A stretch of 64,000 bases of DNA from Candidatus Omnitrophota bacterium (GCA_043820815.1 JBDRDJ010000005.1:105517-169516), one strand, 5' to 3'. Positions 2,896-30,552 are shown, counted from the stretch's first letter. The notes: a model not told the origin generated them from the letters alone. Program-made: numbers and translations.

Positions 2896-2924
2896 ATTTT
2901 AAATGATTACACAGATATTAAATA

Positions 2925-2945
2925 TAATACAATATTATACATGGG
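2925..2945 (-). promoter_or_regulatory. Putative extended -10 promoter (TGTATAAT) for serS
   Basis: Minus-strand TGTATAAT about 40 nt upstream of the serS ATG; no clear -35. Confidence 0.3.
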
Positions 2946-2987
2946 TTCTTGAAAAAATCTATATTATTATGATAAATCGTATTAATA

Positions 2988-3010
2988 ACGGGCGGCCACA
3001 AGGGCCGCCT
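2988..3010. repeat. GC-rich hairpin repeat, copy 1 (ACGGGCGGCCACAAGGGCCGCC)
   Basis: Member of the 4-copy family ACGGGCGGCCRCAAGGGCCGCCCGT with an AT-rich TTATTA leader; intergenic between serS and the permease gene. Confidence 0.7.
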
Positions 3011-4649
3011 AATATTCCTTCTTCTCCAACTTCCAAAGCCCTATCCAGCTTACCGCTATTGCCGTGCTTATGCTGACAACTACCCAAATCAATAATGCCT
3101 TATTTAGGGTATTATGAAAATAAAGAGATTTACCTTTAAAATAAAGATGTGTTATTGTACCAAATAAAAAAACAGTTATGAAAGTATACCCCACATTAAT
3201 AATAAGTGCTACAAATCCCCCCAGGCTTTCAACAGCCTCAAGGTAATACGGCTGGGTAAAATCGGCAAAATATGCACCCAAGCCCAAAGAATAACTCGAC
3301 ATTGTTAATGTAGAGACTAAAGTGACAAACAAGGCAAGTTTTAAAAAGGCCGGATCAATATCAAGCATGCGGCTGGATGTATAAATAAGCAATCCTGCTA
3401 TAAAAGCGATCGTAGTAAACGAAAGAAAAAACTTTTCAATAAACACTTTCTTTAAAGATACGGGCGCAAGCTTTAAAATCCAGAAATTGCTTCCCTCAAG
3501 GCTCCATTGCGGATAAATAAACCGTATGCCAATGGCTGAAATTATACAAAGAATACTGAACATATTTAAAAATGTTAAAATATTCTTCCATACAGGGACC
3601 AAAAGATGATAAGACATTCTGCGTATATTCAAGAAATAAAAGAACAATATTCCGAAAAAAAGGAAAAACTGAAGCCACTGGCTGGGCTCACGCACAAAAA
3701 GCTTTATATCTTTAGCTATAAAAGCACGCATCTTTATGGGAATAACTTTAAGATAACCGATAACAATTCCTAAATAATCAGTATTAGTTTTCTTATGTAT
3801 AAGCCAGCGGTGCCTATGATAAATAAAAAGAAATGTTTTTGAGGGCAGGCTGATTAGGCTAAGCAAAAGAAAAGAAAGCCCCCAGAGGTTGACAAGGTAT
3901 AAAAGAGATTTCTTAATATTTCCATCCTCGAAATAGGTTAAACCGTACCCCGGCCAAGAAGATGGAAAAAACCAAACTCTGGAAGTTTTTAAGAATGCGA
4001 CTTCCTCGGAAAGAAAATAAAATAAATCTTTTCCTTGATGAAGGCTGCTGTATTTCAAATAAAGAGCAATGAAAATAGCCGGCACAACGGTTACGCTTGC
4101 GATAACAATTTTCTTTAAGCTAAGCCGCCGAAGAATCCAAAGCGCAAGAAAATATCCTGTTGCACACGATATGATAAAAAACGGGACAGAATAAAATATG
4201 CATGCCAACGAAAGTTTAACTCCGATTCCGCCAACTTGAGAGTAAGCCGTGATAAACAGAATTACCCCAAAAAAAGGAATCCAGCAGGTCATAAAAAGAG
4301 ATTCGGCGAACTTATAAAGAATAATGTTTGCTGAATCAACCGGAAGGCTCAACAGGTATTGTGTTTCCTTACTCCTGAATGTTACCCCGTAGAAAAATAC
4401 CCCGAAGCTTAAAGCCACCATACAAAAAAGAATAAAAAACAAAATAAAGATTATTTTCTTGACTATGACCGTGCCCAAACCGCCAAGCACAATAAGAAAC
4501 CTTAGCCCCTCCCAAATTCCGATATATATCCCGAATATCGCAAAAAGAAGAAACAAACAAATAGCAAAAAATCTGAAAGGCGACTTATTATAGATTGATA
4601 TGATGTGATTTAGAAAACTATTCAGGCGCTGAACAAATAAAGGCTTCAT
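3009..4649 (-). CDS. Polytopic membrane protein, probable ABC transporter permease partner
   Basis: 546 aa with about 12 hydrophobic segments, immediately downstream of and translationally coupled to an ABC ATPase. Confidence 0.5.
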   Translation of the reverse strand: MKPLFVQRLNSFLNHIISIYNKSPFRFFAICLFLLFAIFGIYIGIWEGLRFLIVLGGLGTVIVKKIIFILFFILFCMVALSFGVFFYGVTFRSKETQYLLSLPVDSANIILYKFAESLFMTCWIPFFGVILFITAYSQVGGIGVKLSLACIFYSVPFFIISCATGYFLALWILRRLSLKKIVIASVTVVPAIFIALYLKYSSLHQGKDLFYFLSEEVAFLKTSRVWFFPSSWPGYGLTYFEDGNIKKSLLYLVNLWGLSFLLLSLISLPSKTFLFIYHRHRWLIHKKTNTDYLGIVIGYLKVIPIKMRAFIAKDIKLFVREPSQWLQFFLFFGILFFYFLNIRRMSYHLLVPVWKNILTFLNMFSILCIISAIGIRFIYPQWSLEGSNFWILKLAPVSLKKVFIEKFFLSFTTIAFIAGLLIYTSSRMLDIDPAFLKLALFVTLVSTLTMSSYSLGLGAYFADFTQPYYLEAVESLGGFVALIINVGYTFITVFLFGTITHLYFKGKSLYFHNTLNKALLIWVVVSISTAIAVSWIGLWKLEKKEY

Positions 4650-17804: not shown

Positions 17805-18206
17805 CTAATCAGGGGTACAGCAGAGGTAAGACGGGCTGCAACCCATGGGAACTCCTCCATTATTCCACCATTGGCTGGTTGACTGAGCACAGCCGGATCC
17901 TGAAGGATGATGGAAAGATGCCAAACTACTGAAGGTATCTTTGCATTCCCCTGTATATCCTAAATACTTCTTTTGAACAAAATTGAGCGGACAAAAATCG
18001 TATTCCGGCAAAGCAGCCTTATTCACACAAGGCTGGGATGCTACGCCATTATTAGTGCCGCAGTGATAGACAAAACAAAAACCCGAAGCTGTGCCGCCTT
18101 GTTGACTTTCATCACTCAAACCTTTTGAACCCAAAACAAAAAATATTGCAATAAAGAATATTGCAAAAACACTGCCGATAAACAAACGTGAAATTTTTCT
18201 TCTCAT
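17805..18206 (-). CDS. Small secreted Cys-rich protein: stand-alone copy of the C-terminal Cys-rich module of the paralog family
   Basis: Signal peptide/TM, then FCFVYHCG...PCVNKAALPEYDFCP...YLGYTGEC...HPSGSGC...YLCC; this aligns with the C-termini of the proteins at 18299-21148. RBS AAAGGAGG. Confidence 0.65.
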   Translation of the reverse strand: MRRKISRLFIGSVFAIFFIAIFFVLGSKGLSDESQQGGTASGFCFVYHCGTNNGVASQPCVNKAALPEYDFCPLNFVQKKYLGYTGECKDTFSSLASFHHPSGSGCAQSTSQWWNNGGVPMGCSPSYLCCTPD

Positions 18207-18298
18207 TACAGCCTCCTTTTATCCATTCGCCAGAAGACCACGCGCATGCGCGCGGGACTCCATTTACAGCCAAACTTTAATAAACTTAAAAAATACGA
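18207..18298. promoter_or_regulatory. Intergenic region with a GC-rich palindrome CCCGCGCGCATGCGCGTGG upstream of the 17805-18206 gene
   Basis: A perfect 12-bp palindrome CGCGCATGCGCG in an otherwise AT-rich spacer, about 20 nt upstream of the RBS. Confidence 0.3.
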
Positions 18299-19258
18299 TT
18301 ATTTTATACAAATATAAACACGGTCTCCGGGATAATATGTGAAACCGGCAAGACAGTTTCCCCCGGGCGGCGTATAATGAAAATCAGAGCCTTTTTGGCA
18401 GAGGCCCCAAGTACCAAGATAAACCCTCTGTTTATATTCACCGGGACAAAAATCCTCTGCCGGAAATACCGCTTTATTAACACAAGCAGGCGCATATGAA
18501 CCGCCGCAGTAATAAGTAAAATATATTCCTTCTTCTCCTATGGCCGCCACCCATTTTTTCTCATCACCGTCATAAACCTTAAGCATATAGTAATCCGGCG
18601 GGGATATAATTGCCGGTTTCCCTGCTAAAATATTTGCAGGGCAATCCCCATTATCATCAACCGGCACAATTACCATATCACCTGTTTCTGGATTCTGAGG
18701 ATAAATTGCCGTACAATGATCGGGACTCAAAAGTTGATTTAAAATGGGGAGCGGCTGAATACGGATACCATCAGAAGTCTTAATATGGAGTGTTCTTTGA
18801 GGGCCTCCTTCTGAAATATCAAGGCCAATACCTACTCTTCCCTTATCGCTCACGGATAAAATATCCATGTCACTTCCGGCATTACGCACTCTTAAAGCAT
18901 ACGTATCTGCATTATTGCCGCTGTTCTCACCCCTTATATCAAAACGAGCCAATTGAGCCGGGTCGGTTCCCGCAGACACACCAACAGCAACCTGGCCGCT
19001 AACTGTAAGGCCTCCCGGTATTAGGTCTCCGGCCTGGGCATGATTGGCAGGATATGTCGGCCTCTGGATTTCACCAATACTTTGGCTTTCAACAACAACG
19101 AGATCTTGATATGAACCATAGGGTATAGGGTAATAAGTAGTTAAGGTAATTTCTTTATATCCCTTGGATTTTACCTGGCTTAAAACCGGAAAAATTATTA
19201 ATGCGTTAACAGCTAAGAGTAAAACCGCAACAATAACAAAAATTTTCTTTTTCATCAT
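18299..19258 (-). CDS. Secreted paralog family protein P1 (N-terminal ITLTTYYPIPYG motif, Gly-rich GIG repeats, C-terminal Cys-rich module)
   Basis: Signal peptide; KEITLTTYYPIPYGSYQDL; GRVGIGLD...RTLHI; C-terminus YFTYYCGGSYAPACVNKAVFPAEDFCPGEYKQRVYLGTWGLC...PPGGNC...YICIK. Confidence 0.7.
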   Translation of the reverse strand: MMKKKIFVIVAVLLLAVNALIIFPVLSQVKSKGYKEITLTTYYPIPYGSYQDLVVVESQSIGEIQRPTYPANHAQAGDLIPGGLTVSGQVAVGVSAGTDPAQLARFDIRGENSGNNADTYALRVRNAGSDMDILSVSDKGRVGIGLDISEGGPQRTLHIKTSDGIRIQPLPILNQLLSPDHCTAIYPQNPETGDMVIVPVDDNGDCPANILAGKPAIISPPDYYMLKVYDGDEKKWVAAIGEEGIYFTYYCGGSYAPACVNKAVFPAEDFCPGEYKQRVYLGTWGLCQKGSDFHYTPPGGNCLAGFTYYPGDRVYICIK

Positions 19259-19279
19259 AACTGCCTTGGTTAAATTATT

Positions 19280-20248
19280 TTACTTCTTCTCAATGATGTA
19301 GCCGCCGGGAACACACAGATAAGCTTCTCCGATATTTTCTAAACCCATGTGTTTTCGGCAGCCTCCGCCGGGAGGACGATAAAAATAATCCTTAACAACA
19401 AAGCTACCCTCCTTATGGCAATAGCCCCAATTGCCAAGAGGCATTACTTGTTTAAAACCAACAGGGCAATACTTTTGAGGCTCACCTGCATCAATACAAA
19501 GACGTCCGCCTTGACCGCCGCAATAGTATGTAAAGGCATACCCTTTGCTTCCGGCCTTAGGAGTCATCCATACAGCCGGCTTCTCTAAGTTTGGATCAGC
19601 GTCTGGAACCGATTCCTGATATAGCCACTTAAGCTTATTTTTATCGCTTTTATCAATTAAGATATCGCCGGGCTTGCCGTCAGGCTTATTGCCTACAAGG
19701 GGAAATACATTAACATCGCTTAGGTCTGAATGTTCAATCCTCATGCCGTTATCACCAAAAATATCAAGCCGCCTTCTAGGCTGTTCATTAAACACATTAA
19801 CGCCAAATCCAATCATAGAGTTATTTCCAACTGCCAAAGCATATTTACCGCTGTTACTGCTATCGCGCACACCAAATACATATTCACCGGCTGAATCATT
19901 TTGCCTGGACACATGAACAGTTGTAACAGGCCTATCCACGCCAACGCCTACTCTTCCCGAAACAGCTAAAAGGCCTCCGTTATTAGGCATAACAATTGGA
20001 ACAACCGCAGGCAAATCATCCCTGTCAACAACACCGTCATCATTAACATCGCCAATAACCTGCCTGGTAACATACAAATCTTTATAAACTCCGTAAGGAG
20101 CAGGATAAAATGTTGTTAATGTAATATTTTCGCTCTGATTTTGAGTAAATCCGGGCAAACTTATAATAGAAATAAAACACAAAATATAAATTATTCTTCT
20201 CACAAAATAGCTCCTAAAATAAAAATATTTGTTATCAAAATTCTCCAC
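19280..20248 (-). CDS. Secreted paralog family protein P2 (ITLTTFYPAPYG motif, dockerin-like DVNDDGVVDRDD loop, Cys-rich C-terminus)
   Basis: Signal peptide; NITLTTFYPAPYGVYKDL; GDVNDDGVVDRDD; C-terminus FTYYCGGQGGRLC...YCP...LGNWGYC...PPGGGC...YLC. Confidence 0.7.
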   Translation of the reverse strand: MENFDNKYFYFRSYFVRRIIYILCFISIISLPGFTQNQSENITLTTFYPAPYGVYKDLYVTRQVIGDVNDDGVVDRDDLPAVVPIVMPNNGGLLAVSGRVGVGVDRPVTTVHVSRQNDSAGEYVFGVRDSSNSGKYALAVGNNSMIGFGVNVFNEQPRRRLDIFGDNGMRIEHSDLSDVNVFPLVGNKPDGKPGDILIDKSDKNKLKWLYQESVPDADPNLEKPAVWMTPKAGSKGYAFTYYCGGQGGRLCIDAGEPQKYCPVGFKQVMPLGNWGYCHKEGSFVVKDYFYRPPGGGCRKHMGLENIGEAYLCVPGGYIIEKK

Positions 20249-21148
20249 AGATATACGCCTTGCCTATAGGAAGAGATTTAGTGTCCCCTGGAAAACAGCC
20301 TCCGCCGGGAGGATGATAATAGGAATAAGCCGGCGGCCACCCCCAGGGTCCCTTCGGAACTTCACAATTACCCCATTCCCCCAGATAAACTTTTTCTTTA
20401 AATTGTATATTGTTTATAACCGGGCAATGGTTCTCAATAGGAGGGTTATCAGGTGGACAAAGCCTGCACGTTTCATTTTGCCCGGTACAATTATAACTGC
20501 AGTAATAATCAAAATGGACATTAGTTCTTCCTGCGCTTCTCCATTTTTCTCCGTCGTGCCAGCTAAGCGCATTGCCATTGCTTAAATCAACTACAATATC
20601 GCCGGTATCGCCTTCAGGTTGGTTGTTTACGCGGGGAAAGCTGTTAAGGTCAGCGGCCTTGAGCCTTATTCCGTTAACACCGCCGACATGAAGGGTCCTT
20701 TCTGCATCGTTAACACCAATGCCTATTCTACCGTTGCTATTTATAAACATTGCAAAATCAGCTTTGCCTGGGCTGCTGCCAATACCAAGAGGAAATTGTC
20801 CGTGGACACTATTTATACCGGTATCTCTTACAATATCTAAAGTAGCGGCAGGGGAAGTTGTGCCAATACCTAATCTTGAGGCAACAGTCAAGCCTCCAGG
20901 TGTTGGCTGGCCTGCGCTTGGATGGCCAGGGGGTATCTAAGCATATCCTCGGAATCAACATCGCCGTCACCGTCAACATCCCCTATGACTTCGTGGTTGG
21001 TAACGATTATTTCTCTATATAATCCGTAAGGCGAGGGGTAATAGGTAGTAAGGGTTATTTTTTCATCAGCCTGCTGGCAGAAAAGAGAGGATTGAAAGGA
21101 AAAACATAAAAAAGATACGAATAAAATAAAAGCAAACTGTCTTAACAT
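20235..21148 (-). pseudogene. Paralog P3 broken by a frameshift in a G5 (plus-strand) homopolymer at 20929-20933; one extra G restores a single ORF of about 304 aa
   Basis: The ORF at 20888-21148 encodes signal peptide + EKITLTTYYPSPYGLY + GDVDGDGDVDSEDMLRY. The frame of 20235-20891 continues upstream as IPPGHPSAGQPTPGGLTVASRLGIGTTSP..., matching the neighbours. The two frames meet in the CCCCC run. Confidence 0.65.
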
Positions 21149-21243: not shown

Positions 21244-21272
21244 CTAATAGCGTAAAAGGGGTCAGTGTGACC
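21244..21272 (-). terminator. Hairpin GTAAAAGGGGTCACACTGACCCCTTTTAC downstream of btuD
   Basis: Perfect inverted repeat plus a U-rich tail on the minus strand, immediately after the stop at 21277. Confidence 0.5.
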
Positions 21273-21276
21273 CCTT

Positions 21277-22053
21277 TTACGCAAGAAAAACATAAGGGGT
21301 ATTAGAAGACGGGTGATTTCCAATTTCGACATTAGTTTGATAAACATCTTCGATTATTGCCTTGGTGATAACTTGGCCGGGCAAGCCTTGTGAATGGGCT
21401 TTTCCCTTATTAAGAAGAACCAATCTGTCACAATATTGAGATGCAAGGTTTAAATCATGTAAAATCACAATAACCGTAAACCCTTTTTCTTTATGCAGCC
21501 TTTTTAGAAGGTTTAAAATCTTAACTTGATTGCCTATGTCAAGATGGCTTGTTGGTTCATCTAAAAGTAAAAGCAAAGGTTCCTGGGCCAGAGCTGCGGC
21601 AATGCTCGCAAGCTGCCTCTCGCCTGAGCTGATCTCAAGCAAAGACTTACCTTTAATATGTTCCGTATGAGTGCCTCTAAGAGCAGAATGAACTGCGGCT
21701 AAATCATTTTTAGTCTCAAAAAACTGAAATCTTCTAAAATGAGGGGTTCTTCCAAGCAGTACATATTCTTCAACTGTTATGGGAATATGCTCTTCAGTTT
21801 GGCTTACAACCGCGATTTTCTTTGCAAGCTTAGTTCTCTTTATATTAATTAAATCCTCATCGTCGAAAATAATCTTGCCCGATTTTATTTTAAGAATCCC
21901 TGCGACTGCCTTGAGCATGGTTGTTTTGCCGGAACCGTTTGGGCCGATTATTCCTATAAAACCCCCCTTCTGAACAGTTAAATTGATCCCTGATAGAGAA
22001 AAATTATCATAACCGCACTCAAGATCAAATATTTCAAGTAATTTAGAGCTCAT
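21277..22053 (-). CDS. btuD: ABC transporter ATP-binding protein (iron-siderophore/cobalamin family, BtuD/FepC-like)
   Basis: Walker A GPNGSGKTT, signature SGERQ, Walker B LLLDEPTSHLD; adjacent to a FecCD permease and a binding protein. Confidence 0.8.
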   Translation of the reverse strand: MSSKLLEIFDLECGYDNFSLSGINLTVQKGGFIGIIGPNGSGKTTMLKAVAGILKIKSGKIIFDDEDLINIKRTKLAKKIAVVSQTEEHIPITVEEYVLLGRTPHFRRFQFFETKNDLAAVHSALRGTHTEHIKGKSLLEISSGERQLASIAAALAQEPLLLLLDEPTSHLDIGNQVKILNLLKRLHKEKGFTVIVILHDLNLASQYCDRLVLLNKGKAHSQGLPGQVITKAIIEDVYQTNVEIGNHPSSNTPYVFLA

Positions 22054-23057
22054 AAATATCTCTTTTTGCCCAAAGCATATATAAAAACTGAACCGCCGAT
22101 TATTCCCGTAATTACCCCTACGGGAAGCTCAAGAGGTAAAATAATTGTCCGGGCAGCTATATCGCAGGAAATAAGAAATATTGCCCCTGCCAGATAAGAA
22201 GATAATAAAAGTATCCTGTGGTCACGGCCGCAAACTATTCGCATAAAATGAGGAACAACTAACCCGACAAAGCCTACGATTCCGCAGACAGAGACAAAAA
22301 CTCCCGTTAAAAGGCTTGCCATAAGAAAAATTATCTTTTTTAATCTCTCAACATTTAAACCTAAATAAGCGGCCTGTTCTTCCCCCAAAGACAAAGCGTT
22401 CAACCGCACAGATAAAAAGCAAGCTGTTATCAGCCCGAGGAATGAACACAAAGCGGCAAGCTGCGTTAATTTCCAATCGGCCTTGCCCAAATAACCCATT
22501 GTCCACATAACAATACCGTGTAAATCTTCTGTCTTTGAAAGCGCCATTACAAGCATAATCAACGACGAACTTATATAGCTTACCATGACTCCTGAAAGCA
22601 ATACGCCTTTTAATTCAAGCAGGCCTTTTCGCAGGCTGATAGAATATAGAAAACAAACAACCAAAAGCGAGCCCAGAAATCCGGATATAGCAAGAGAGGC
22701 ATTGCCTAATATGGCAAAACTTCCTCTTAACCCCAAGCTTAAGCTGACCCCCAGACAAGCGCCCCCTGAAATACCTAAGGTGTAAGGCTCAACAAGCGGG
22801 TTTCTAAACATCGCCTGAAGCATAACACCGACAAGGCTTAATCCCCCTCCCACAGCTAAACCTAAGACAATCCGCTGAAAACGCAAATTCCATATAATAC
22901 TGAAGGCAATAGAATCATGTCTGCCAAATAATGAAGCTATAACTTCTCTTGCAGAATATCCTATCGTGCCTGTTTTTAAGGAAACAAAACAAACTCCTAA
23001 AAGTATTAGCAAAAGCGTAATTATACAAAAAGCGTAGCGGATTATCTTTTTATTCAT
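22050..23057 (-). CDS. btuC: FecCD-family ABC permease (BtuC-like)
   Basis: 335-aa polytopic protein with the typical FecCD layout (..GLAVGGGLSLVG.., ..TGIIGG..); translationally coupled. Confidence 0.8.
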   Translation of the reverse strand: MNKKIIRYAFCIITLLLILLGVCFVSLKTGTIGYSAREVIASLFGRHDSIAFSIIWNLRFQRIVLGLAVGGGLSLVGVMLQAMFRNPLVEPYTLGISGGACLGVSLSLGLRGSFAILGNASLAISGFLGSLLVVCFLYSISLRKGLLELKGVLLSGVMVSYISSSLIMLVMALSKTEDLHGIVMWTMGYLGKADWKLTQLAALCSFLGLITACFLSVRLNALSLGEEQAAYLGLNVERLKKIIFLMASLLTGVFVSVCGIVGFVGLVVPHFMRIVCGRDHRILLLSSYLAGAIFLISCDIAARTIILPLELPVGVITGIIGGSVFIYALGKKRYL

Positions 23058-23913
23058 TGTCAGGATGAATTATTTTCACAAATTCCTTTAATGCCTGTAA
23101 GAACGCAGCCGGGTTCGGCCTGGTTACAACATCGGCGCAAACGAAGTGTATCCGATTGTTCTTTACCGCACCAATAGATTCAAAACTCCTCCACAGCTTC
23201 ATTTCTTCTTCCTGGATGATACCCATTGACGCAATAATGATAATATCGGGGTTTTTCCTAAGAACTTCTTCGCGTGAATAAATCCCCTGGGGGCTGTCTT
23301 TGGCAATATTTACTGCCCCGGAAAATTCAATAAGGTCATTAACAAAAGAGTTCTTATTAACGGTAAAAAGGGGCTTTGCGCCGATTTGAACGAAAACCTT
23401 CGGGCCTGCTTTACTTGATACAGAACCGCGTATTTCATTGATTTCGTTTTTTACATCACCTATCATTTCTTCTGCTTCTGCTCTTTTTCCTATTAACCCG
23501 CCAAGGCGGATAAACTGTTCACAGAGATCATCGAAATTAACAGGCTCGGCAAATACTGCCGTATTGATATTAAAATTTCTAAGAAGATTCTTATCATTAT
23601 CAGAAAGCATAGTTGTAACCAAAACTAAATCCGGCTTCATGGCCAAAACCTTCTCTATATTGATACCGGTGAGAGTGCCAATTTTTTCTTTTTCTTTAGC
23701 AAAAGCCGGACGCGTGCAGTATATCGTGTCAGCAATAAGTTTATCTTGGGCACCAAGAGCATAAATTCCTTCGGTCAATGCCGGGCTTAATGAGATTATT
23801 CGCGAAGGCAATTTATCCTGTGTGTAACCGTAATCACACAAAAAAATGAAAATAGCTGCATAAATAAAATTTAATTTTGATAAATTCATAACGGAAGAAA
23901 ATCGCAATAGCAA
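23050..23913 (-). CDS. btuF: Periplasmic substrate-binding protein (BtuF/iron-siderophore class III)
   Basis: Signal peptide, RIISLSPALTE...KPDLVL motifs typical of BtuF-like binding proteins. Confidence 0.75.
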   Translation of the reverse strand: MLLRFSSVMNLSKLNFIYAAIFIFLCDYGYTQDKLPSRIISLSPALTEGIYALGAQDKLIADTIYCTRPAFAKEKEKIGTLTGINIEKVLAMKPDLVLVTTMLSDNDKNLLRNFNINTAVFAEPVNFDDLCEQFIRLGGLIGKRAEAEEMIGDVKNEINEIRGSVSSKAGPKVFVQIGAKPLFTVNKNSFVNDLIEFSGAVNIAKDSPQGIYSREEVLRKNPDIIIIASMGIIQEEEMKLWRSFESIGAVKNNRIHFVCADVVTRPNPAAFLQALKEFVKIIHPDNE

Positions 23914-24554
23914 AACCTGTCGTCTCTTAACACAATTTCACCTTTGACAAAGGCAACCGGCTCTTTAAAAATTGGCCCGTCAAAGACAAAAGAGTGGAAT
24001 TCTCCGTTTTCACCGCAATGGTCAACTCCCTCTGGCAATTCAGAAACAAGGCCTTTTGAAAATAACCTCCCGGTGAATTTCTTATCAAGCCTTTTTGTAT
24101 CTACACAAGATAAAGCAGCCTTGAACCCATAATTTATAAACGAATCAGCAAGCTTTTTTGTATCCTTTCCCCAAAGAGGAAAGATTGCTTTTAAGCCTGC
24201 CTCGCTTAATTTATCCTCCCGGTAACGCCTTAAATCCTCAAGAAAAATATCGCCGACAACAACAGATTCAACCCCGTTTTTCTTGTAATTTAAAAGGGTA
24301 TTTTTCATTTGCGCTTCATAATCTCCGTTTGCAGCGTCTTTGGTAATGAAAACTTTTTCAAGACAAATACCTAAGCTTAGGGCTTGCTGTTCAAGAAGAG
24401 ACGTTCTTACGCCGTGCATGCTTATTCTGTCATAATCGCGGGTAACTGTTGTAAGCAGGGCGGCGACTTCATATTGTTTTGTTTTTATTATTTCATAAAG
24501 CGCGAACGCAGAATCTTTACCGCCACTCCAAGAAATTAGGACCTTTTCTCGCAT
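23886..24554 (-). CDS. PP-loop ATP pyrophosphatase, Dph6/MJ0570-related (COG2102-like)
   Basis: N-terminal SWSGGKDS PP-loop; overall pattern of diphthine-ammonia-ligase-like alpha/beta ATPases; embedded in the riboswitch-controlled btu operon. Confidence 0.65.
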   Translation of the reverse strand: MREKVLISWSGGKDSAFALYEIIKTKQYEVAALLTTVTRDYDRISMHGVRTSLLEQQALSLGICLEKVFITKDAANGDYEAQMKNTLLNYKKNGVESVVVGDIFLEDLRRYREDKLSEAGLKAIFPLWGKDTKKLADSFINYGFKAALSCVDTKRLDKKFTGRLFSKGLVSELPEGVDHCGENGEFHSFVFDGPIFKEPVAFVKGEIVLRDDRFCYCDFLPL

Positions 24555-24599
24555 GATTAATTAACGGTGCAGGCAGGCCTGCACCCTACAATCCAATTA

Positions 24600-26555
24600 T
24601 TAGAATTCGCATTTAAAACCGGTGTAGAGAGATAGTTTTTCTTCCTGATAACCCTTGATTCTTTCGTAATCTTTATTTAATAAATTATTCACCTTTATAA
24701 ACAACGTTGATTTATCATTAAGCCGGTAGTTGCAATTTAAATTAACTAGAGTGTAAGGCTTCATAGGAACAAAACTATCCACTGCCCCAACCCATATTCT
24801 ATCAGTTCTCGAGCCTGCGTAAATAAAATCTAAAATTGTTTTTAATTTCTTAAATTCCCATGTAATATTAAAATATGCCTTATGCCTGGGCACGCGGATT
24901 AAGGCACGGCTGAAAATATCCACTAAATTATCGTCAACAAAATCCTGCTCACCGTTTAAATGCGTATATCCGGTTTCAATTTTTAAGGCTTCATCGGGCT
25001 TATAATCAAAAGAAATCTCAACTCCCCTCATTTTCTGCTTAGCGGCATTTTTGTATTCTCCCTGATAAAGCGAAGGATTTGTAAATACAAAATCAATTAA
25101 TCCTTTCAAATTGGAGTGAAAGTAGGCAAAATTAAGCGATATTTTATCGCCAAAGGCTTGCTTGAAGCCGGCCTCCCAGGTTTTTGACTCTTCCGGTTCA
25201 AGATTGCGGTTTCCGTTTGATGAAAACAGCTGATACAAAGACGGTGCTTTAAACCCCTCTCCGTAAGAAAAGAATAGATTAGAATTATCAATAGGGCTGT
25301 AAGAAACTCCTGATTTCACAACAGAATGATATTTAAAAAGAGGGCTGTATTCACGCCGGTATGAAAAATCTACATTTAGATTTTCCCATGGGTTTATAAT
25401 CTGCTCAACAAACCACCCCTTGGCATAGCTGCTTACCTTAGGCGAATCAGAAGCATACCCAAAAGCCCAGGCGTAATCATAGGTATACCTGTAGCTGTCC
25501 ATATGCTCCTGGGTATAATCAAAGCCTACGAGAGTCCTGTATTCATTTAAAGGCCGCAGCTCGAAATGGTTTGACAGCTGATAAGTGCTGCCTTTATACC
25601 AACCTCTTGTATATTCATCAGCGCCGCCCTCATTGTCATCAAAAACTTTCCTGTAAATCCTGGTATAGCCGGCCTGGATTTTATAATCAAGGCAATCGAG
25701 TAAATTTTTCTTAATGTAAGTAGTGCCAAAAAACTCATTACCTATATTTAGATTATCAGGGTCATCTTCGGGAAATCCGTCTAAGTTATCGTCATCATCT
25801 ATCTCAGTTCTGGAATGTGAGCCTCTCATATAAAGGGCCATCTCAAGATTTTGCGGTTCTTGATAATTTAACCCCAGTGTAAGATTTGTATTCTGGTAGG
25901 GGTCACGTTCAGGGTTGTTATTCTTTTCTTTTGCTTTTGAAATACCTTTTGAATCAACCCGGGCAATATTAAAAAGATAGGATAAATTATTTGATTCTCC
26001 GCCTAATTCTAAGCTTTCTTGAAATGTATCGTGAGAACCGGATAAAGATGAAATATTGATATGCGGCCGGCCAGCAGGCCTTTTAACAAGAAAATTAACC
26101 GCACCTCCTATAGGAGAAGATCCGTAAAGGGATGAAAGGGGGAATTTTACAATCTCTATTTTATTGAGGCCGGTTGCGAGAAAGTCCGAAGGCACGTAGT
26201 AGGCTGATGTATTTGAAGGGTCATAGATTTTTAATCCTTCAAATAAATAGGCAGTATGCCTTGTTCTTGCTCCTCTTATATAGATTCCCTCAGAGGAACT
26301 TCCGAGCCTACCTCCGCCTATAACATCAACGCCGGTTATGCCTGAAAGAGTTTCGCCGGCAGTAAACAGGTTTTTGCCTTCAATATTCTCTTGGCCTAAA
26401 ACATTAACATGAATATCGTGATATTTTGACTCTACCTCAGTCTTTGAAGGCGTGATTACTAAATTGCCCAGGTCAACGGGATCCTGGCTGTAACAGACCA
26501 GGGATACAAGACACAAGACCGCAGGCAATAATAATTTTTTTAATAATTTTGGCAT
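24600..26555 (-). CDS. btuB: TonB-dependent outer-membrane receptor (cobalamin receptor BtuB-like)
   Basis: Signal peptide, TonB-box-like DLGNLVITPSKTE, plug and barrel, C-terminal ...FKCEF ending in Phe; first gene after a cobalamin riboswitch. Confidence 0.8.
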   Translation of the reverse strand: MPKLLKKLLLPAVLCLVSLVCYSQDPVDLGNLVITPSKTEVESKYHDIHVNVLGQENIEGKNLFTAGETLSGITGVDVIGGGRLGSSSEGIYIRGARTRHTAYLFEGLKIYDPSNTSAYYVPSDFLATGLNKIEIVKFPLSSLYGSSPIGGAVNFLVKRPAGRPHINISSLSGSHDTFQESLELGGESNNLSYLFNIARVDSKGISKAKEKNNNPERDPYQNTNLTLGLNYQEPQNLEMALYMRGSHSRTEIDDDDNLDGFPEDDPDNLNIGNEFFGTTYIKKNLLDCLDYKIQAGYTRIYRKVFDDNEGGADEYTRGWYKGSTYQLSNHFELRPLNEYRTLVGFDYTQEHMDSYRYTYDYAWAFGYASDSPKVSSYAKGWFVEQIINPWENLNVDFSYRREYSPLFKYHSVVKSGVSYSPIDNSNLFFSYGEGFKAPSLYQLFSSNGNRNLEPEESKTWEAGFKQAFGDKISLNFAYFHSNLKGLIDFVFTNPSLYQGEYKNAAKQKMRGVEISFDYKPDEALKIETGYTHLNGEQDFVDDNLVDIFSRALIRVPRHKAYFNITWEFKKLKTILDFIYAGSRTDRIWVGAVDSFVPMKPYTLVNLNCNYRLNDKSTLFIKVNNLLNKDYERIKGYQEEKLSLYTGFKCEF

Positions 26556-26585
26556 GTTAACCTCCTTTATTTGTTGTTATTTATT

Positions 26586-26610
26586 ACGGGCGGCCGCAAG
26601 GGCCGCCCGT
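26586..26610. repeat. GC-rich hairpin repeat, copy 2 (ACGGGCGGCCGCAAGGGCCGCCCGT, perfect 10-bp stem)
   Basis: Same family as 2988, 46831 and 48046; lies between the riboswitch terminator and the btuB RBS. Confidence 0.7.
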
Positions 26611-26613
26611 ACA

Positions 26614-26660
26614 ATAAAAAACCCCCTATACCGCTCGCTTTCACAAGTGATATAGGGGTG
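26614..26660 (-). terminator. Intrinsic terminator of the riboswitch expression platform
   Basis: Minus strand CCCCTATA...TATAGGGGG followed by TTTTTTATT, just downstream of the aptamer. Confidence 0.6.
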
Positions 26661-26694
26661 CACCCTTATTTACTTTGCCCTATAATTAAAAAAA

Positions 26695-26895
26695 TTTAGG
26701 TTCTATTTCCGCGCAAAACCTAAAGTCACATACTTATTCAGCAGGTCTTCTGACTTACCCGCTCTTTTAACGCCTTCCCATCCTAATTTATTCGGAAAGT
26801 GGCTTAAGTGTTAAAAGAGTTTTCTCATCTTAAGAGAAACAGGATCACAGCTCCGGGAGAGCTGCCGAATTTCACGGCATTCCCTTTTAATCCAT
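26695..26895 (-). promoter_or_regulatory. Cobalamin (AdoCbl) riboswitch
   Basis: Minus strand carries GGGAATGCCGTGAAATTCGGCAGC...CCCGGAGCTGTGATCC...GCCACT...GGGAAGGCG...AGTCAGAAGACCTGCTG. This matches the cobalamin aptamer core (GGGAA..GGTGAAA.TCC..GC.G.CCC.GC.ACTGT) and B12 box (AGYCAGGAGACCTGCC). Confidence 0.8.
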
Positions 26896-27088
26896 ATGGC
26901 ACTGAATCAGTAAATTAATCAAATTTTTAAAGAGCTGATTTATTTTACATGAAGGAGATGTTGTGTCAAGCTTTTTCGGAATACGGATAGCGACCGAAGG
27001 GAGTCCTGAGCGAGACCGAAGGTCGAGTCGAAGGGCGGATTGCGTGATGCGTTATTGTTCGGTGTTGGTTATTTGCAGGCACGCATTA

Positions 27089-27511
27089 TCAAGCACCAGA
27101 AAGGTAAGACTTTACCGTTTTAAGATAATCGCTAATTACTGCGGGGATATTTTGAAGTTTATCGTAAACAATTTCGTGGTCTAAAGCCGCGTATTCGTGA
27201 ACAAGTATATTTCTGAACCGGGCCAGGTCGATAAGTTTTTCTTTTAACTCACTGTCAATAATATTATTTTCAAATAAGATTCTTGGTATCTCAGCATAAG
27301 TATCGGGCTTGCGAAACTTCTTTTCGCTGATAATTATTTCTCCGATAGTTAGATATGCTTCCAAAGCTAAATGAAGCTCCCTTTCGGCCAAATCATGAAT
27401 CTTCCAATCAGAAAGAAATTTATCACGTGAACATTTCTTAAGCTCATTCAGCTGTTTTGCATAACGCTCTAACTCTAATAAATACTTGGCTATTTTTTCC
27501 TGATCAACCAT
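27089..27511 (-). CDS. hepT: HEPN-domain toxin HepT (DUF86)
   Basis: 140 aa with the C-terminal R-x4-HxY motif (RNILVHEY); directly downstream of an MNT-type nucleotidyltransferase. Confidence 0.8.
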   Translation of the reverse strand: MVDQEKIAKYLLELERYAKQLNELKKCSRDKFLSDWKIHDLAERELHLALEAYLTIGEIIISEKKFRKPDTYAEIPRILFENNIIDSELKEKLIDLARFRNILVHEYAALDHEIVYDKLQNIPAVISDYLKTVKSYLSGA

Positions 27512-27516
27512 AAAAG

Positions 27517-27927
27517 TTAACCATCTTTTATCGCCTGCCTTGTATATTTATCAAGATAAGGCTTCCAGTCCAGATATTTAAGTATAGTTATCTGCTCATA
27601 ATCAAGTCTCAGTTTTTCATCGGCGCAGTAAATAAGTTTGCCGTCACGCAGAATTCTTTGCGCTAAGAAAGGGCTTGCATTGTTTAAAAGCACAAGGTCT
27701 ATCTCGTCAGTCTTAAGGGCATCGTTTAACCGGCCAAGCAGTTCTAATTTCTTTCCGGAATATTCCTTCCTATCCAATCCTCCTATATACAAAGCAATGT
27801 CAATATCACTCAAAGGACCGGTTGAGCCTTTTGCCTGTGAGCCAAAAAGATAAGCAAACACAACACCGCTATCTCTACATACAGCGTTTATCTTCTCCCC
27901 GATCTCTTCTCTGTTATGCTTTGCCAT
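27517..27927 (-). CDS. mntA: Minimal nucleotidyltransferase MntA (antitoxin, pol-beta-type NTase)
   Basis: GS-x10-SDID motif (FGSQAKGSTGPLSDIDIAL) of the pol-beta NTase fold; 136 aa; 5-nt gap to hepT. Confidence 0.8.
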   Translation of the reverse strand: MAKHNREEIGEKINAVCRDSGVVFAYLFGSQAKGSTGPLSDIDIALYIGGLDRKEYSGKKLELLGRLNDALKTDEIDLVLLNNASPFLAQRILRDGKLIYCADEKLRLDYEQITILKYLDWKPYLDKYTRQAIKDG

Positions 27928-28029: not shown

Positions 28030-28810
28030 ACCACAGAGGCCGCAGGGTGTAGGTCGAGTAGACCCGTATTTCAGAGCCCCTCACAGAACCGTACGTGCGG
28101 ATTTCCCGCATACGGCTCTTGAGTAAATTTCCATCAGTATACGATTATGCGTATCACATTATCAACCCCTACCGCTTTATTCCTGTCAAGCGTATAGAAG
28201 CTCGCCTTTAAGGATTCCTTGTTAACATGTTGCATTATGTTGACAAACTTTCGCTTAGAATCCCTTGCGGCATACTGACTTAGTGTGGTTAATTTCGTTC
28301 CCACTGTTTTCCTTTGAACTTTGAGTTCATACAATGTTTCCTTAACCACATTCAACTTACTCCTAACCCCTTCGAGCAGCTTTAAGCTTTAGCGGCGTTA
28401 CCCGCTATTGACTCTAATATGGATTAGTCCGACTACCATTCATGTCGTACTATTGCCTTACTTCTTCAGCTTAAGCACTAGCTTAATTGGAAACATGATG
28501 GTCATCCCAAGTTCCAATGCAAACATTCGATAACCCACGGTGGCTTACTACCCCGGCAGGACAACATATCCTTGCCATAGCGTTTATGCTGTTACTGGTT
28601 TCCAGCACTTGAAAACTTTAACCCACTGCTACATGTCTATTTCGGGGCTAAAAATCCTTCACTTGTGTTACCGTTGATTATCTCCTTCCCCTTGGCTTTG
28701 CACGATTTGTTACCGCCTCGTACACAAGGTTCAGTACCTCCCTGATGGCTAATCTTTAAGAGAGTTAGCTTTTACATACTAACCTGTCTGCATCAGCTTT
28801 CTTGGCGCAC
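28030..28810 (-). mobile_element. ORF-degenerate group II intron (about 0.78 kb), probably class C: inserted in intergenic DNA immediately after a stem-loop
   Basis: 5' end GTGCGCC (revcomp of 28804-28810). Domain V GAGCCGTATGCGGGAAATCCGCACGTACGGTTC (revcomp of 28086-28118) matches the DV consensus. A 73-aa RT N-terminal remnant sits between. The exon flank just 5' of the insertion forms the hairpin TCAAGTCTCAACTTGA. The 3' boundary is approximate; D6 was not resolved. Confidence 0.75.
28134..28355 (-). pseudogene. Remnant of the group II intron-encoded reverse transcriptase/maturase (N-terminal 73 aa only)
   Basis: The translation ...LYELKVQRKTV...FVNIMQHVNKESLKASFYTLDRNKAVGVDNV resembles the RT0/N-terminal region of intron-encoded proteins (..L...I...NL..A...V..NKGAAGVDG..). 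The ORF stops 16 nt before DV. Confidence 0.6.
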
Positions 28811-29115: not shown

Positions 29116-29883
29116 TTAAAAACAAGGTTCCTTTAGACCGGAACAACTCAGCGATATCGTACGTATACCACCTACCGCACAACTATTTTGACGTTGCCAA
29201 CCACTAGCATTGGTATAATACCAAACCCAATTATCAGTACAGGAAACCCATTGTTTAGTCTTTATAGCATCAACCTTGGTATAACCTTCAAGTTCGCATA
29301 AATGCTTAGCAGTTGTATTGTCGGCCCTTGTCTGTTCCGAATCATCAGCTACTGGTAGACCTGCACCCTCGCTGCCTGCAAGTTGATTAATTCTACTTTC
29401 ACCAAGAACAACATTCTCCGGTGGGCACCAACACGGAATCCATACTGCTTTTCCAGCGCCATCTGACTTAAGACAATCACCTTTCTTGCCCTCTGCAACC
29501 GGCAACTCATATCCAACCCCAGGGGCACCAATATTTACCTGCCCTTCTAAGAGAGCTGTACCGACAACATCAAGATTCTCTCTAGGTTCACGAGTCCCTA
29601 TGCCCAAACTGCCAGATAGTGCCAAACTTCCCGGCAAAGGATCACCGTTTATGTCAACAGCCATGTCTGCATTAGTAACTTTACCGTCTCCATCAACATC
29701 TCCAAGAACAACGGTGTTGGTAATAATGAGATCTTTATACACCCCGTAAGGTGCCGGGTAATAGGTTGTAAGTGAAATTTTCTCGCCATCAGGCTCCTCT
29801 GCCTTAGGCTTAGAAAAACCGGTAAACACCACTGAAACAGCGAGAAACAAAAATGCAATTAGAATAAAGGCTCTTTTTGACAT
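29116..29883 (-). CDS. Secreted paralog family protein P4 (ISLTTYYPAPYG motif, dockerin-like DVDGDGKVTNAD loop; divergent Cys-rich C-terminus)
   Basis: Probable start MSKRAF (RBS AAGGAGG), not the upstream ATG at 29913. Signal peptide; EKISLTTYYPAPYGVYKDLII; GDVDGDGKVTNADMAVDINGD; SLGIGTREPRENLDV; 10 Cys in the C-terminal 110 aa. Confidence 0.65.
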   Translation of the reverse strand: MSKRAFILIAFLFLAVSVVFTGFSKPKAEEPDGEKISLTTYYPAPYGVYKDLIITNTVVLGDVDGDGKVTNADMAVDINGDPLPGSLALSGSLGIGTREPRENLDVVGTALLEGQVNIGAPGVGYELPVAEGKKGDCLKSDGAGKAVWIPCWCPPENVVLGESRINQLAGSEGAGLPVADDSEQTRADNTTAKHLCELEGYTKVDAIKTKQWVSCTDNWVWYYTNASGWQRQNSCAVGGIRTISLSCSGLKEPCF

Positions 29884-30007
29884 ATTCCCCTCCTTTTTAA
29901 CCACGAAATCCAATATTTGAATACTACATATTTATGAAAACTATACCATATAAATATACCATATTTTCGGCGGAAAAACCACCTTTTTCGGAGAAAAAGG
30001 AAAAAGG

Positions 30008-30037
30008 GGAAGTTCAGTGCAACCCCTTTAATACTCG
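30008..30037 (-). terminator. Intrinsic terminator after cobO (AGGGGTTGCACTGAACTTCCCCT + TTTTTCC)
   Basis: Hairpin and U-run on the minus strand overlapping the stop codon at 30028. Confidence 0.55.
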
Positions 30038-30552
30038 ATGCCTTTGCGGGCGATAAGTTTTCTGTCAAAGGGGTGTTTGATCTTCTGAATATAGGAGACA
30101 TAATCGGCCATGGCGATTATTGATTTAGGGGCTTCTCTTCCGGTTAGAACAAGCTCAACTTCTCTCGCTTTTCTGATTAATTCCTTAATTCTTTGCTGTT
30201 TTACAATTCCCAGCTCAAGGCCGTTTAAAAGCTCGTCCAGTATAAACACATCGAATCTCTGTATATTGAGGTCATATTCAATTTTTTCCAAGGCTTGCCT
30301 TACGGATTCCTCTGTCTTTTCTTTATCAAAATCACCGTCTTTTAAAAACATGGGGTGTGTCTGGTATTCAAAACGCTCTATCTTAAAAGGAAGCTTATAT
30401 TCCTTAACAATATTCAGCTCACCGCAAGAAGAATCCAAACTTTTTAGAAACTGAGCAATATAAACAGACTTCTTCCAGCCTGCCGCCCTTAGAGCCAACC
30501 CTAAAATCGACGTTGTCTTTCCTTTTCCGTCACCTATGTATAAATGTATCAT
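30028..30552 (-). CDS. cobO: Cob(I)yrinic acid a,c-diamide / corrinoid adenosyltransferase (CobO/BtuR family)
   Basis: 174 aa. P-loop GDGKGKTT, ...VYIAQFLK..., ...FILDEL..., ...LTGREAP... typical of the BtuR/CobA family. Confidence 0.75.
   Translation of the reverse strand: MIHLYIGDGKGKTTSILGLALRAAGWKKSVYIAQFLKSLDSSCGELNIVKEYKLPFKIERFEYQTHPMFLKDGDFDKEKTEESVRQALEKIEYDLNIQRFDVFILDELLNGLELGIVKQQRIKELIRKAREVELVLTGREAPKSIIAMADYVSYIQKIKHPFDRKLIARKGIEY

Follow-up and report, generated by a model that had tools for sequence, protein, structure and literature searches.

Which reaction would a PP-loop ATP pyrophosphatase carry out when its gene is embedded among genes for corrinoid import? Most microbes rely on corrinoids from others, and the conversion of imported analogues is only partly understood; to our knowledge just two cobamide-remodelling enzymes, CbiZ and CbiR, have been described. 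The question is raised by a locus in a 64-kb stretch of DNA (hereafter the window) from a 238-kb contig, whose source is annotated as Candidatus Omnitrophota and which carries bacterial 16S, 23S and 5S rRNA genes. We propose that this locus is probably an Omnitrophota corrinoid uptake operon, switched off through a cobalamin riboswitch, that additionally encodes an adenylating enzyme of the DUF71-B12 subgroup acting at a salvage or remodelling step.

An earlier note on this DNA had implied that the link between such an enzyme and B12 was novel. That link was published in 2012, when the DUF71-B12 subgroup of COG2102/PF01902 was defined by the signature ENGEF/YH in place of the EGGE/DxE188 of Dph6 and was predicted to function in B12 salvage (de Crecy-Lagard et al. 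2012, Biol Direct 7:32; PMC3541065). In that study 75 of the 102 members adjoin B12 transporter genes and 18 of the 102 adjoin cbiB, and the subgroup both clusters with btuFCD and displays a strict anticorrelation with bacterial CbiZ (PMC3541065). The window protein bears the signature, and the locus is an additional instance of this known family, whose role is a predicted one. Riboswitch control is absent from the 2012 paper, in which the word occurs 0 times (PMC3541065), and a literature search that extended beyond 2012 turned up no study in which a DUF71-B12 protein had been examined by biochemistry or genetics. The subgroup is large, comprising 666 clusters at 50% identity (E <= 1e-30), and its members in public records, including that of the window, are usually mislabelled 'diphthine-ammonia ligase'.

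Riboswitch, leader and operon

All features described here lie on the minus strand of the window. The region 26723..26921 scores 94.2 bits with the Rfam Cobalamin covariance model (RF00174; gathering score 31.5, E 3.8e-22) and spans model positions 1-189 of 189, which makes it a full-length aptamer; it includes the B12 box expected of the family (AGUCAGAAGACCUGC). The earlier note had rightly placed a cobalamin aptamer here, and the strings that it quoted were found at 26884-26861 (GGGAATGCCGTGAAATTCGGCAGC) and, as the B12 box within the aptamer, at 26755-26739 (AGTCAGAAGACCTGCTG); however, its boundary at 26895 omits the 5' part of the aptamer, which ends at 26921. Just upstream of the riboswitch is a promoter-like site, TTGACA-16 nt-TAAAAT (26942..26969), recognized by a consensus scan only, with 11/12 matches.

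Two hairpins with U tracts directly follow the aptamer on its 3' side. One of these, a putative expression-platform hairpin of 11 bp that begins at the aptamer 3' end, is AU-rich and followed by U7 (26688..26724, stem 26724-26695; -9.4 kcal/mol, z -2.4), and may act as a terminator. The other (CCCCUAUA...UAUAGGGG; 26616..26661, stem 26661-26621; -23.6 kcal/mol, z -4.8) is followed by U6 and is the strongest candidate for an intrinsic terminator in the leader. A further GC-rich hairpin of 11 bp, without a U tract (26585..26611; -24.0 kcal/mol), precedes the receptor gene's Shine-Dalgarno sequence, AAGGAGG, by about 25 nt. A putative alternative pairing that would serve as antiterminator comes solely from visual reading of the leader. 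Going by this anatomy, transcription would start at the sigma-70-like promoter and, with ligand bound, would be expected to stop at one of the two U-tract hairpins, while a single mRNA with all five genes would be made when ligand is missing. The riboswitch would in this way shut the operon off whenever corrinoid cofactor is in ample supply.

The five tightly packed genes 3' of the riboswitch code for a TonB-dependent receptor, the PP-loop protein, a binding protein, a permease and an ATPase; every element that the earlier note had listed for this locus exists. The receptor is a BtuB-like outer-membrane protein of 651 aa (24600..26555) with a Plug (PF07715) and a barrel (PF00593) domain, and its best NCBIfam match is TonB-B12 (TIGR01779; 213.8 bits, cut-off 599.7). 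After the gene for the DUF71-B12 PP-loop ATP pyrophosphatase of 222 aa (23886..24554; PF01902) come those for a BtuF-like periplasmic binding protein (23050..23889; PF01497, 108 bits; BtuF NF002894, 112.5 bits, cut-off 234), a BtuC-like FecCD permease of 335 aa (22050..23057; PF01032, 284 bits; best NCBIfam match BtuC NF003001, 206.1 bits, cut-off 334) and a BtuD-like ABC ATPase of 258 aa (21277..22053; PF00005). The last has haem, F420-0, FecE and corrinoid ABC ATPases as its best NCBIfam matches, all below their cut-offs, and scores 124.2 bits against the BtuD equivalog (cut-off 281). A terminator-like hairpin of 15 bp (21250..21282; -26.0 kcal/mol, z -8.6) closes the operon. The proteins thus include all the architectures of a B12 transporter (Plug plus barrel, Peripla_BP_2, FecCD and ABC_tran), with all four transport proteins below the NCBIfam Btu equivalog cut-offs, and it is the riboswitch context that suggests a corrinoid specificity for receptor and importer. 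Judging from families and context, the receptor would carry corrinoids across the outer membrane, and BtuF together with the FecCD/ABC pair would bring them into the cytoplasm.

Within this array btuC overlaps btuF by 8 nt and btuD overlaps btuC by 4 nt. A spacer of 45 nt separates the receptor gene from the PP-loop gene, whose stop codon in turn overlaps the start codon of btuF (ATGA). A consensus scan of this 45-nt spacer revealed no promoter-like site, and the hairpin found there (24559..24593, core GGUGCAGG-CCUG-CCUGCACC at 24585-24566; -17.8 kcal/mol), which is unique in the window, is without a U tract, was not among the terminators called, and does not have the canonical form of one. 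The PP-loop gene therefore has neither the promoter nor the terminator of its own that would have marked it as an independent unit, and its position inside the riboswitch-controlled import operon, as originally claimed, is upheld.

The sole cob gene in the 64-kb window, which has no cobS, cobT, cobU or cobC, encodes a CobO/BtuR corrinoid adenosyltransferase (30028..30552; PF02572, 164 bits; TIGR00708, 128.7 bits, below the cut-off of 167.75). Since the riboswitch is 3.1 kb downstream of it, with one further gene, a group II intron and a toxin-antitoxin pair in between, it belongs to a separate transcription unit outside the operon.

The PP-loop protein and its relatives

The window protein matches PF01902/COG2102 over its full length (134.9 bits, cut-off 23.2; residues 4-208 against profile positions 2-204 of 219). 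It displays the PP-loop motif SGGKDS at residues 10-15 (within SWSGGKDS, 8-15) and CGENGEFH at residues 180-187, of which GENGEFH (181-187) corresponds to the published ENGEF/YH signature; the motif recurs in about 130 of the 150 representatives in an unbiased sample of the family. A rough neighbour-joining tree of 52 sequences, built with no bootstrap, places the window protein alongside bacterial B12-linked members, grouping with L011, L012 and Planctomycetota btuF-DUF71-btuCD loci in a clade most of whose members are btu-linked. By these sequence features, and by its clustering with B12 transport genes, the protein is a member of the DUF71-B12 subgroup.

Alignment with the archaeal Dph6 PF0828 (PDB 3RJZ; E 1.2e-23, residues 5-205) reveals that the ATP-binding residues are conserved, and that GENGEFH of the window protein corresponds to GEGGEFE188, with a histidine at the E188 position and a cysteine in place of alanine just before the motif. 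The description as 'Dph6-like' therefore stands at the level of fold and family, but does not extend to the catalytic glutamate, which has become histidine, nor to the Dph6 equivalog TIGR03679, against which the protein scores 98.7 bits, below the cut-off of 197.3. Identity with Dph6 diphthine-ammonia ligase was rejected on these two grounds and because the host is bacterial; the NCBI name 'diphthine--ammonia ligase' is a misannotation by homology transfer.

The earlier note had proposed a survey of gene neighbourhoods, and this recovered B12 linkage, with btu contexts among the relatives, in further phyla where the order of the genes varies. DUF71 genes lie downstream of a cobalamin riboswitch in five other loci (L012, L013, L042, L051 and L059), among which L012 has the operon riboswitch-btuF-btuC-DUF71-btuD-cobO-cobT-cobS-cobC-cobU. 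A DUF71::CobT fusion is encoded on 3 contigs in an operon of the form riboswitch-TBDR-DUF6580-BtuF-fusion-CobS-CobC. The five riboswitch operons, that of L012 among them, and the CobT fusion are reported here for the first time. The order is btuF-DUF71-btuCD in Planctomycetota and btuB-DUF71 in the window, L011, L013 and L051, and this variation among phyla argues for selection on the linkage rather than inheritance of one arrangement. Counting against a B12 connection, B12 genes occur close by in no more than about 16-18 of the 55 genome loci. Several of the closest relatives (61-66% identity), from Dadabacteria, Kryptoniota and two other Omnitrophota, stand alone among unrelated neighbours with no riboswitch, and in some relatives the protein is fused to a GNAT acetyltransferase or to another domain with no relation to B12.

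Candidate reactions for the enzyme

Based on the chemistry of the family, the DUF71-B12 enzyme, a cytoplasmic PP-loop ATP pyrophosphatase encoded between the receptor and btuF, would most likely activate the imported corrinoid by ATP-dependent adenylation of an oxygen, whether of a side-chain carboxylate or of an amide carbonyl, with release of PPi, and the second half-reaction would employ the subgroup-specific Cys180 and His187 instead of the Dph6 glutamate. The context of the relatives suggests that incomplete or 'wrong' salvaged cobamides would most likely be processed before nucleotide-loop assembly, in a remodelling or salvage step that would be functionally parallel to bacterial CbiZ.

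The role envisaged in the earlier note was that of an amide synthetase, which would adenylate a free carboxylate of a salvaged corrinoid and re-amidate it with ammonia or an amine, as Dph6 does with diphthine; b-, d- or e-monocarboxylate cobamides and partly amidated precursors would be candidate substrates of such a 'repair'. We consider this rather unlikely. Carboxylate adenylation followed by amidation has been demonstrated for the sister subfamily Dph6, whose ATP-binding residues are shared, and operon packing predicts co-transcription of the PP-loop gene with the importer; nevertheless, the replacement of E188, which lies beside the substrate carboxylate in Dph6, by histidine, along with the added cysteine, argues for a changed reaction. 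No dedicated ammonia-donor gene was seen at any of the B12-context loci, and a class-I glutamine amidotransferase/Peptidase_C26 gene that adjoins the homologue in Dadabacteria and could supply ammonia is a weak pointer, being found in one lineage only and across a 400-nt gap. Nor would re-amidation account for the anticorrelation with CbiZ, for the CobT fusion or for the location of the gene amid nucleotide-loop genes. Those last two contexts could instead point to action on the nucleotide-loop or lower-ligand side, with the enzyme either adenylating cobinamide phosphate in the manner of CobY/CobU or modifying a substrate of CobT or a lower-ligand base. Oxyanions can be adenylated by PP-loop enzymes, as sulfate is by CysD, and both the L012 operon and the operons that combine cobT, cobS and cobC, with no cobU beside the fusion, would agree with such a role. 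However, cobU is already present in the L012 operon and near the Bacillus loci, where a redundant activating enzyme would not be needed, the window operon is without any loop-assembly genes, and the anticorrelation with CbiZ is again unaccounted for, which makes this proposal improbable.

A general function apart from B12, such as amidation or ligation of a common metabolite, with btu operons representing occasional recruitment or hitch-hiking, would account for the sampled loci that mostly have neither B12 genes nor a conserved neighbourhood (the 111 neighbours represent 113 Pfam families), for the frequently stand-alone closest relatives, and for fusions to GNAT, RsmD-like, VanY-like and phosphopantetheinyl transferase domains. 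Yet the same survey of neighbours yielded no alternative conserved context, and B12-operon embedding is seen in loci assigned to seven phyla, in varied orders and in six cases behind a cobalamin riboswitch, in addition to the CobT fusion. B12-linked members are moreover spread across both bacterial clades of the tree, which fits a single function with variable linkage; we hardly expect a general role to be correct.

A remodelling or pre-nucleotide-loop step is favoured because it accommodates the CbiZ anticorrelation, the CobT fusion and the nucleotide-loop operons together, and it is somewhat better supported than re-amidation. Against remodelling, none of cobS, cobT, cobU and cobC occurs in the 64-kb window, PP-loop enzymes are normally synthetases, and we know of no precedent for an ATP-driven cleavage like that of CbiZ. 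It is nonetheless a serious, if tentative, possibility that the subgroup performs an undescribed ATP-dependent, adenylate-forming step of corrinoid salvage by means of its Cys-His pair, as a third remodelling route beside CbiZ and CbiR or as amide repair. If so, the riboswitch operons and the CobT fusion would mark its position in the pathway and provide candidates for biochemistry. The window locus alone does not settle the reaction; considered jointly with the complete L012 salvage operon and the DUF71::CobT fusion, it strengthens the case for B12 salvage and narrows the position in the pathway.

Comparison with known systems

The closest counterparts are the DUF71-B12 proteins described in 2012, such as PF0295 of P. 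furiosus and the homologue from C. perfringens, which share PF01902, SGGxDS, ENGEF/YH and btu clustering; the present locus differs in its Omnitrophota host, in the order riboswitch-btuB-DUF71-btuFCD and in riboswitch control, on which the 2012 paper is silent. Dph6 (EC 6.3.1.14; yeast YLR143W, archaeal PF0828/PH1257, PDB 3RJZ/3RK1/2D13) belongs to the same Pfam family with the same ATP-binding residues, whereas the window protein has His for E188 and Cys for Ala, and a bacterial host without diphthamide. CbiZ, an adenosylcobinamide/pseudo-B12 amidohydrolase, and CbiR, the cobamide phosphodiesterase of Akkermansia, resemble it in the proposed position before loop rebuilding; in contrast, their folds are unrelated and both are ATP-independent hydrolases. 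The equivalence of DUF71-B12 to CbiZ would follow from distribution rather than chemistry.

The import machinery resembles that of E. coli, where a riboswitch likewise controls the TonB-dependent receptor gene btuB, and where a type II ABC importer, BtuFCD, includes a BtuF-like binding protein; the window unites all parts in one operon, with terminator-like leader hairpins, transport proteins below the Btu equivalog cut-offs and an extra embedded enzyme gene. NadE, QueC, LarE and asparagine synthetase, from different families, share SGGxDS and the expected chemistry, in which an oxygen of a carboxylate or carbonyl is adenylated and PPi released, and the catalytic cysteine of LarE offers a parallel, as a lead only, to the DUF71-B12 cysteine.

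A cobalamin riboswitch and the operon downstream of it

Examination of the minus strand of the window reveals a cobalamin riboswitch (26723-26921) that matches the whole Rfam model with 94.2 bits, against a gathering score of 31.5, and contains a canonical B12 box. A promoter-like site (TTGACA-16-TAAAAT) is located 21 nt upstream of the aptamer. The leader contains a weak hairpin with a U7 tract that starts at the 3' end of the aptamer (-9.4 kcal/mol), then a strong hairpin with a U6 tract (-23.6 kcal/mol) and a GC-rich hairpin lacking a U tract (26585-26611, minus; -24.0 kcal/mol), 3' of which an AAGGAGG Shine-Dalgarno sequence precedes the first ATG. Five tightly packed genes follow on the same strand, coding for a TonB-dependent receptor (26555-24600; plug and barrel domains, with a B12 receptor family as the best NCBIfam match), a 222-aa PP-loop protein (24554-23886; PF01902), a BtuF-like binding protein (23889-23050; PF01497), a FecCD permease (23057-22050; PF01032) and an ABC ATPase (22053-21277; PF00005), with a 15-bp terminator-like hairpin (21282-21250, minus; -26 kcal/mol) closing the operon. 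The riboswitch and operon described in the earlier note are therefore real and well formed. Given that none of the four transport proteins reaches the NCBI Btu equivalog cut-offs, the corrinoid specificity of the transporter is one that we infer from the riboswitch.

By every check run, the PP-loop gene is part of this operon. The 45-nt gap that separates it from the receptor gene contains no detectable promoter-like site, and the 8-bp GC hairpin in it (-17.8 kcal/mol) is followed on its 3' side by GUUAAUUAAUC, which lacks a U tract; thus, neither a promoter nor a terminator of its own, which the earlier note had named as evidence against its reading, was found. The PP-loop stop codon overlaps the ATG of the btuF-like gene (ATGA), and the next two junctions are overlaps of 8 nt and 4 nt. 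The hairpins at 26585-26611, just 5' of the receptor ribosome-binding site, and at 24566-24585 (minus), between the receptor and PP-loop genes, are both perfect and very GC-rich within an AT-rich region, and may act in RNA processing or stability, adjusting the expression of the receptor relative to that of the downstream genes.

The cobO gene that had been noted nearby (30552-30028) is genuine, but lies upstream of the operon promoter and is a separate transcription unit. Between the two are a toxin-antitoxin pair, comprised of a HepT-like RNase and an MNT nucleotidyltransferase (27089-27927, minus; directly upstream of the riboswitch promoter), and a group II intron. The RNA domains of the latter span ~720 nt (28053-28773, minus; RF02005 D1-D4 at 28541-28773 and RF00029 D5-D6 at 28053-28120) between the HepT/MNT pair and a secreted-protein gene; no reverse-transcriptase-sized ORF was found between them, and the intron is apparently ORF-less. 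Five paralogous predicted secreted proteins with no Pfam match are encoded at 17805-20891 (minus) and 29116-29913 (minus), four of them in tandem directly downstream of the btu operon. Most display an N-terminal motif, (I/E)(T/S)LTT(Y/F)YPxPYGxYxDL, and a Cys-rich C-terminal region (YYCGG...C...C).

Identity of the PP-loop protein

The PP-loop protein is a member of the PF01902/COG2102 family and aligns to the solved Dph6-type structures PF0828 (PDB 3RJZ; E 1e-23) and PH1257 (E 6e-18), the former match fixing its predicted fold. The earlier description of it as Dph6-type holds to this extent; however, the GEGGEFE188 of PF0828, which includes the Dph6 catalytic glutamate, aligns with GENGEFH in the window protein, and its Dph6 equivalog score is 98.7 bits against a cut-off of 197.3. 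Together with the bacterial host (Candidatus Omnitrophota; bacterial rRNA genes are present in the window), these differences rule out a true Dph6. The public NCBI record of a 100% identical protein, encoded on a 238-kb contig of a metagenome-assembled genome, is named 'diphthine--ammonia ligase'. To our knowledge diphthamide is absent from bacteria; because of this and the differing catalytic motif the name is a misannotation, and it is a systematic one, being carried by most of the retrieved homologs that have an NCBI name.

This distinction has been drawn before. In work by De Crecy-Lagard, Forouhar, Brochier-Armanet, Tong and Hunt (Biol Direct 2012, 7:32; PMC3541065), Dph6 was set apart from a second subgroup, 'DUF71-B12', in which the signature ENGEF/YH replaces EGGE/DxE188, and the authors warned of Dph6-type misannotation of such proteins. 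We consider it probable that the window protein is a DUF71-B12 member that is co-regulated with corrinoid import and acts on corrinoids.

Gene neighborhoods of the relatives

Contextual connections were sought in 55 loci, one genome per species, and in 11 more obtained via exact-protein look-ups; an Rfam scan covered 56 of these. Planctomycetota (L003, L005-L010) show the order btuF-DUF71-btuC-btuD, where DUF71 denotes the PP-loop family gene, with no riboswitch at gathering score in those scanned. Riboswitch control is seen in an Anaerolineae operon (L012; riboswitch-btuF-btuC-DUF71-btuD-cobO-cobT-cobS-cobC-cobU), an unclassified lineage (L013; riboswitch-TonB-dependent receptor-DUF71-DUF6580), Bacteroidota (L042; riboswitch-TonB-dependent receptor-...-DUF71) and Acidobacteriota (L051; riboswitch-btuFCD, then riboswitch-btuB-DUF71-DUF6580). 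In Bacillus and Neobacillus (L015, L017) the gene lies on the opposite strand between two riboswitch-controlled operons, coding for btuFCD with cobU and for an ECF-type transporter. The most informative case emerged from an exhaustive search over 1.84 billion representatives: P0253 (610 aa, 3 contigs; L059:8001-9833, also L060:1275-3107) joins DUF71 (CGENGEFH) in frame to a full-length CobT and is encoded in the operon riboswitch-TonB-dependent receptor-DUF6580-BtuF-DUF71::CobT-CobS-CobC. A chance linkage to B12 is very unlikely, given that the gene orders vary, that DUF71 is fused to CobT in one case and that six cases (the window, L012, L013, L042, L051 and L059) are under riboswitch control.

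Several further features were observed in these neighborhoods. In Planctomycetia (L011; btuB-DUF71-DUF71) tandem paralogs lie directly 3' of the btuB-like gene (2215-2886 and 2896-3570), one with CGENGEFH and SGGKDS, the other divergent, with CGEQGEYH and TGGKDS. A small membrane protein family, DUF6580 (PF20221), recurs beside DUF71 and TonB-dependent receptors in cobalamin-riboswitch operons (L059:6298-6885; L013:4300-4854; L051:8679-9209; L040:429-938; L032:7054-7632), and is absent from the window. As no FecCD/ABC permease was found in the operons of L059 and L013, DUF6580 is a candidate inner-membrane corrinoid permease. The P-loop variants SGGKDS and SSGKDS do not separate B12-linked from unlinked members, in that the Gammaproteobacterial L039 and L040, in which DUF71 adjoins a BtuF-like gene, have SSGKDS. 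A 495-aa ORF at L018, considered as an N-terminal fusion, contains no extra domain and is probably over-extended in GC-rich DNA.

B12 genes are nearby in only ~16-18 of the 55 genome loci. No common neighbor was found among 30 loci without btu genes, whose 111 neighboring genes contain 113 Pfam families, and several genes from among the nearest homologs (61-66% identity; Dadabacteria, Kryptoniota, two other Omnitrophota and Thermodesulfovibrionales) stand alone and lack a riboswitch. In Dadabacteria (L001:9069-9773; L002:2888-3592; L056:9075-9779) the stand-alone homolog (65% identity) is followed after ~400 nt, in this one lineage only, by a Peptidase_C26/class-I glutamine amidotransferase gene, whose product could be an ammonia donor. 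Three close relatives of the window protein are fused to a GNAT acetyltransferase at either terminus (P0121, P0147, P0179; loci L061, L063), and no B12 context was found at the two such loci looked up, hinting at a possible different or broader role for some members; other fusion partners are an RsmD-like methyltransferase, a VanY-like peptidase, a phosphopantetheinyl transferase and DUF2284. In a rough neighbor-joining tree, members linked to B12 are found in each of the two bacterial clades; most members of the clade that contains the window protein are linked. A single function for the whole family, with a B12 linkage that varies, is the simplest reading; the range of substrates may be broader.

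Possible function in relation to Dph6 and CbiZ

PP-loop enzymes adenylate their substrates with release of PPi. The window protein retains an intact SGGKDS and the ATP-binding residues common with Dph6. The family signature is CGE[N/R]GE[F/Y]H; in a set of 150 representatives whose retrieval was not biased by the motif, the histidine is always present where the motif is found and the cysteine in ~90%. In the alignment His187 corresponds to the Dph6 glutamate, which adjoins both the ATP alpha-phosphate and the carboxylate of the substrate; one residue ahead of the motif, Cys180 takes the place of an alanine. The enzyme would adenylate an oxygen on a corrinoid substrate, releasing PPi, and a second half-reaction, unlike simple ammonia attack, would then complete catalysis. 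Since it lacks a signal peptide and needs ATP, it would act in the cytoplasm on imported material.

The strict anticorrelation of DUF71-B12 with CbiZ (PMC3541065), a known bacterial cobamide-remodeling enzyme, along with the fusion to CobT and the position of the gene among cobO/T/S/C/U, suggests a step before or at the entry to nucleotide-loop assembly. A remodeling or salvage-entry role is the most likely specific reading. Re-amidation of corrin-ring carboxylates, as the earlier note proposed for salvaged corrinoids, ranks second; the chemistry that it would require does not match the gene contexts best. Less likely are an activating reaction that acts on the lower ligand or the loop, and a function without B12 specificity.

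As the earlier note stated, the family has no characterized role in B12 salvage: the full-text literature yielded no experimental characterization, only the 2012 paper and its citations, the PDB holds no structure of the subgroup, and a 2016 review still listed it as 'function unknown, B12 salvage'. The B12 link itself is real, but had already been predicted in 2012: of 102 DUF71-B12 members, 75 adjoin genes for B12 transporters (for example btuCDF) and 18 adjoin cbiB, and the proposed role was that of a CbiZ equivalent in pseudo-B12 salvage, 'or another route' (PMC3541065). What the present analysis adds is the riboswitch control seen across several lineages, the fusion of DUF71 to CobT, the L012 operon with its complete set of salvage genes, the conserved cysteine, the patchiness of the linkage and the recurrent DUF6580 neighbor.
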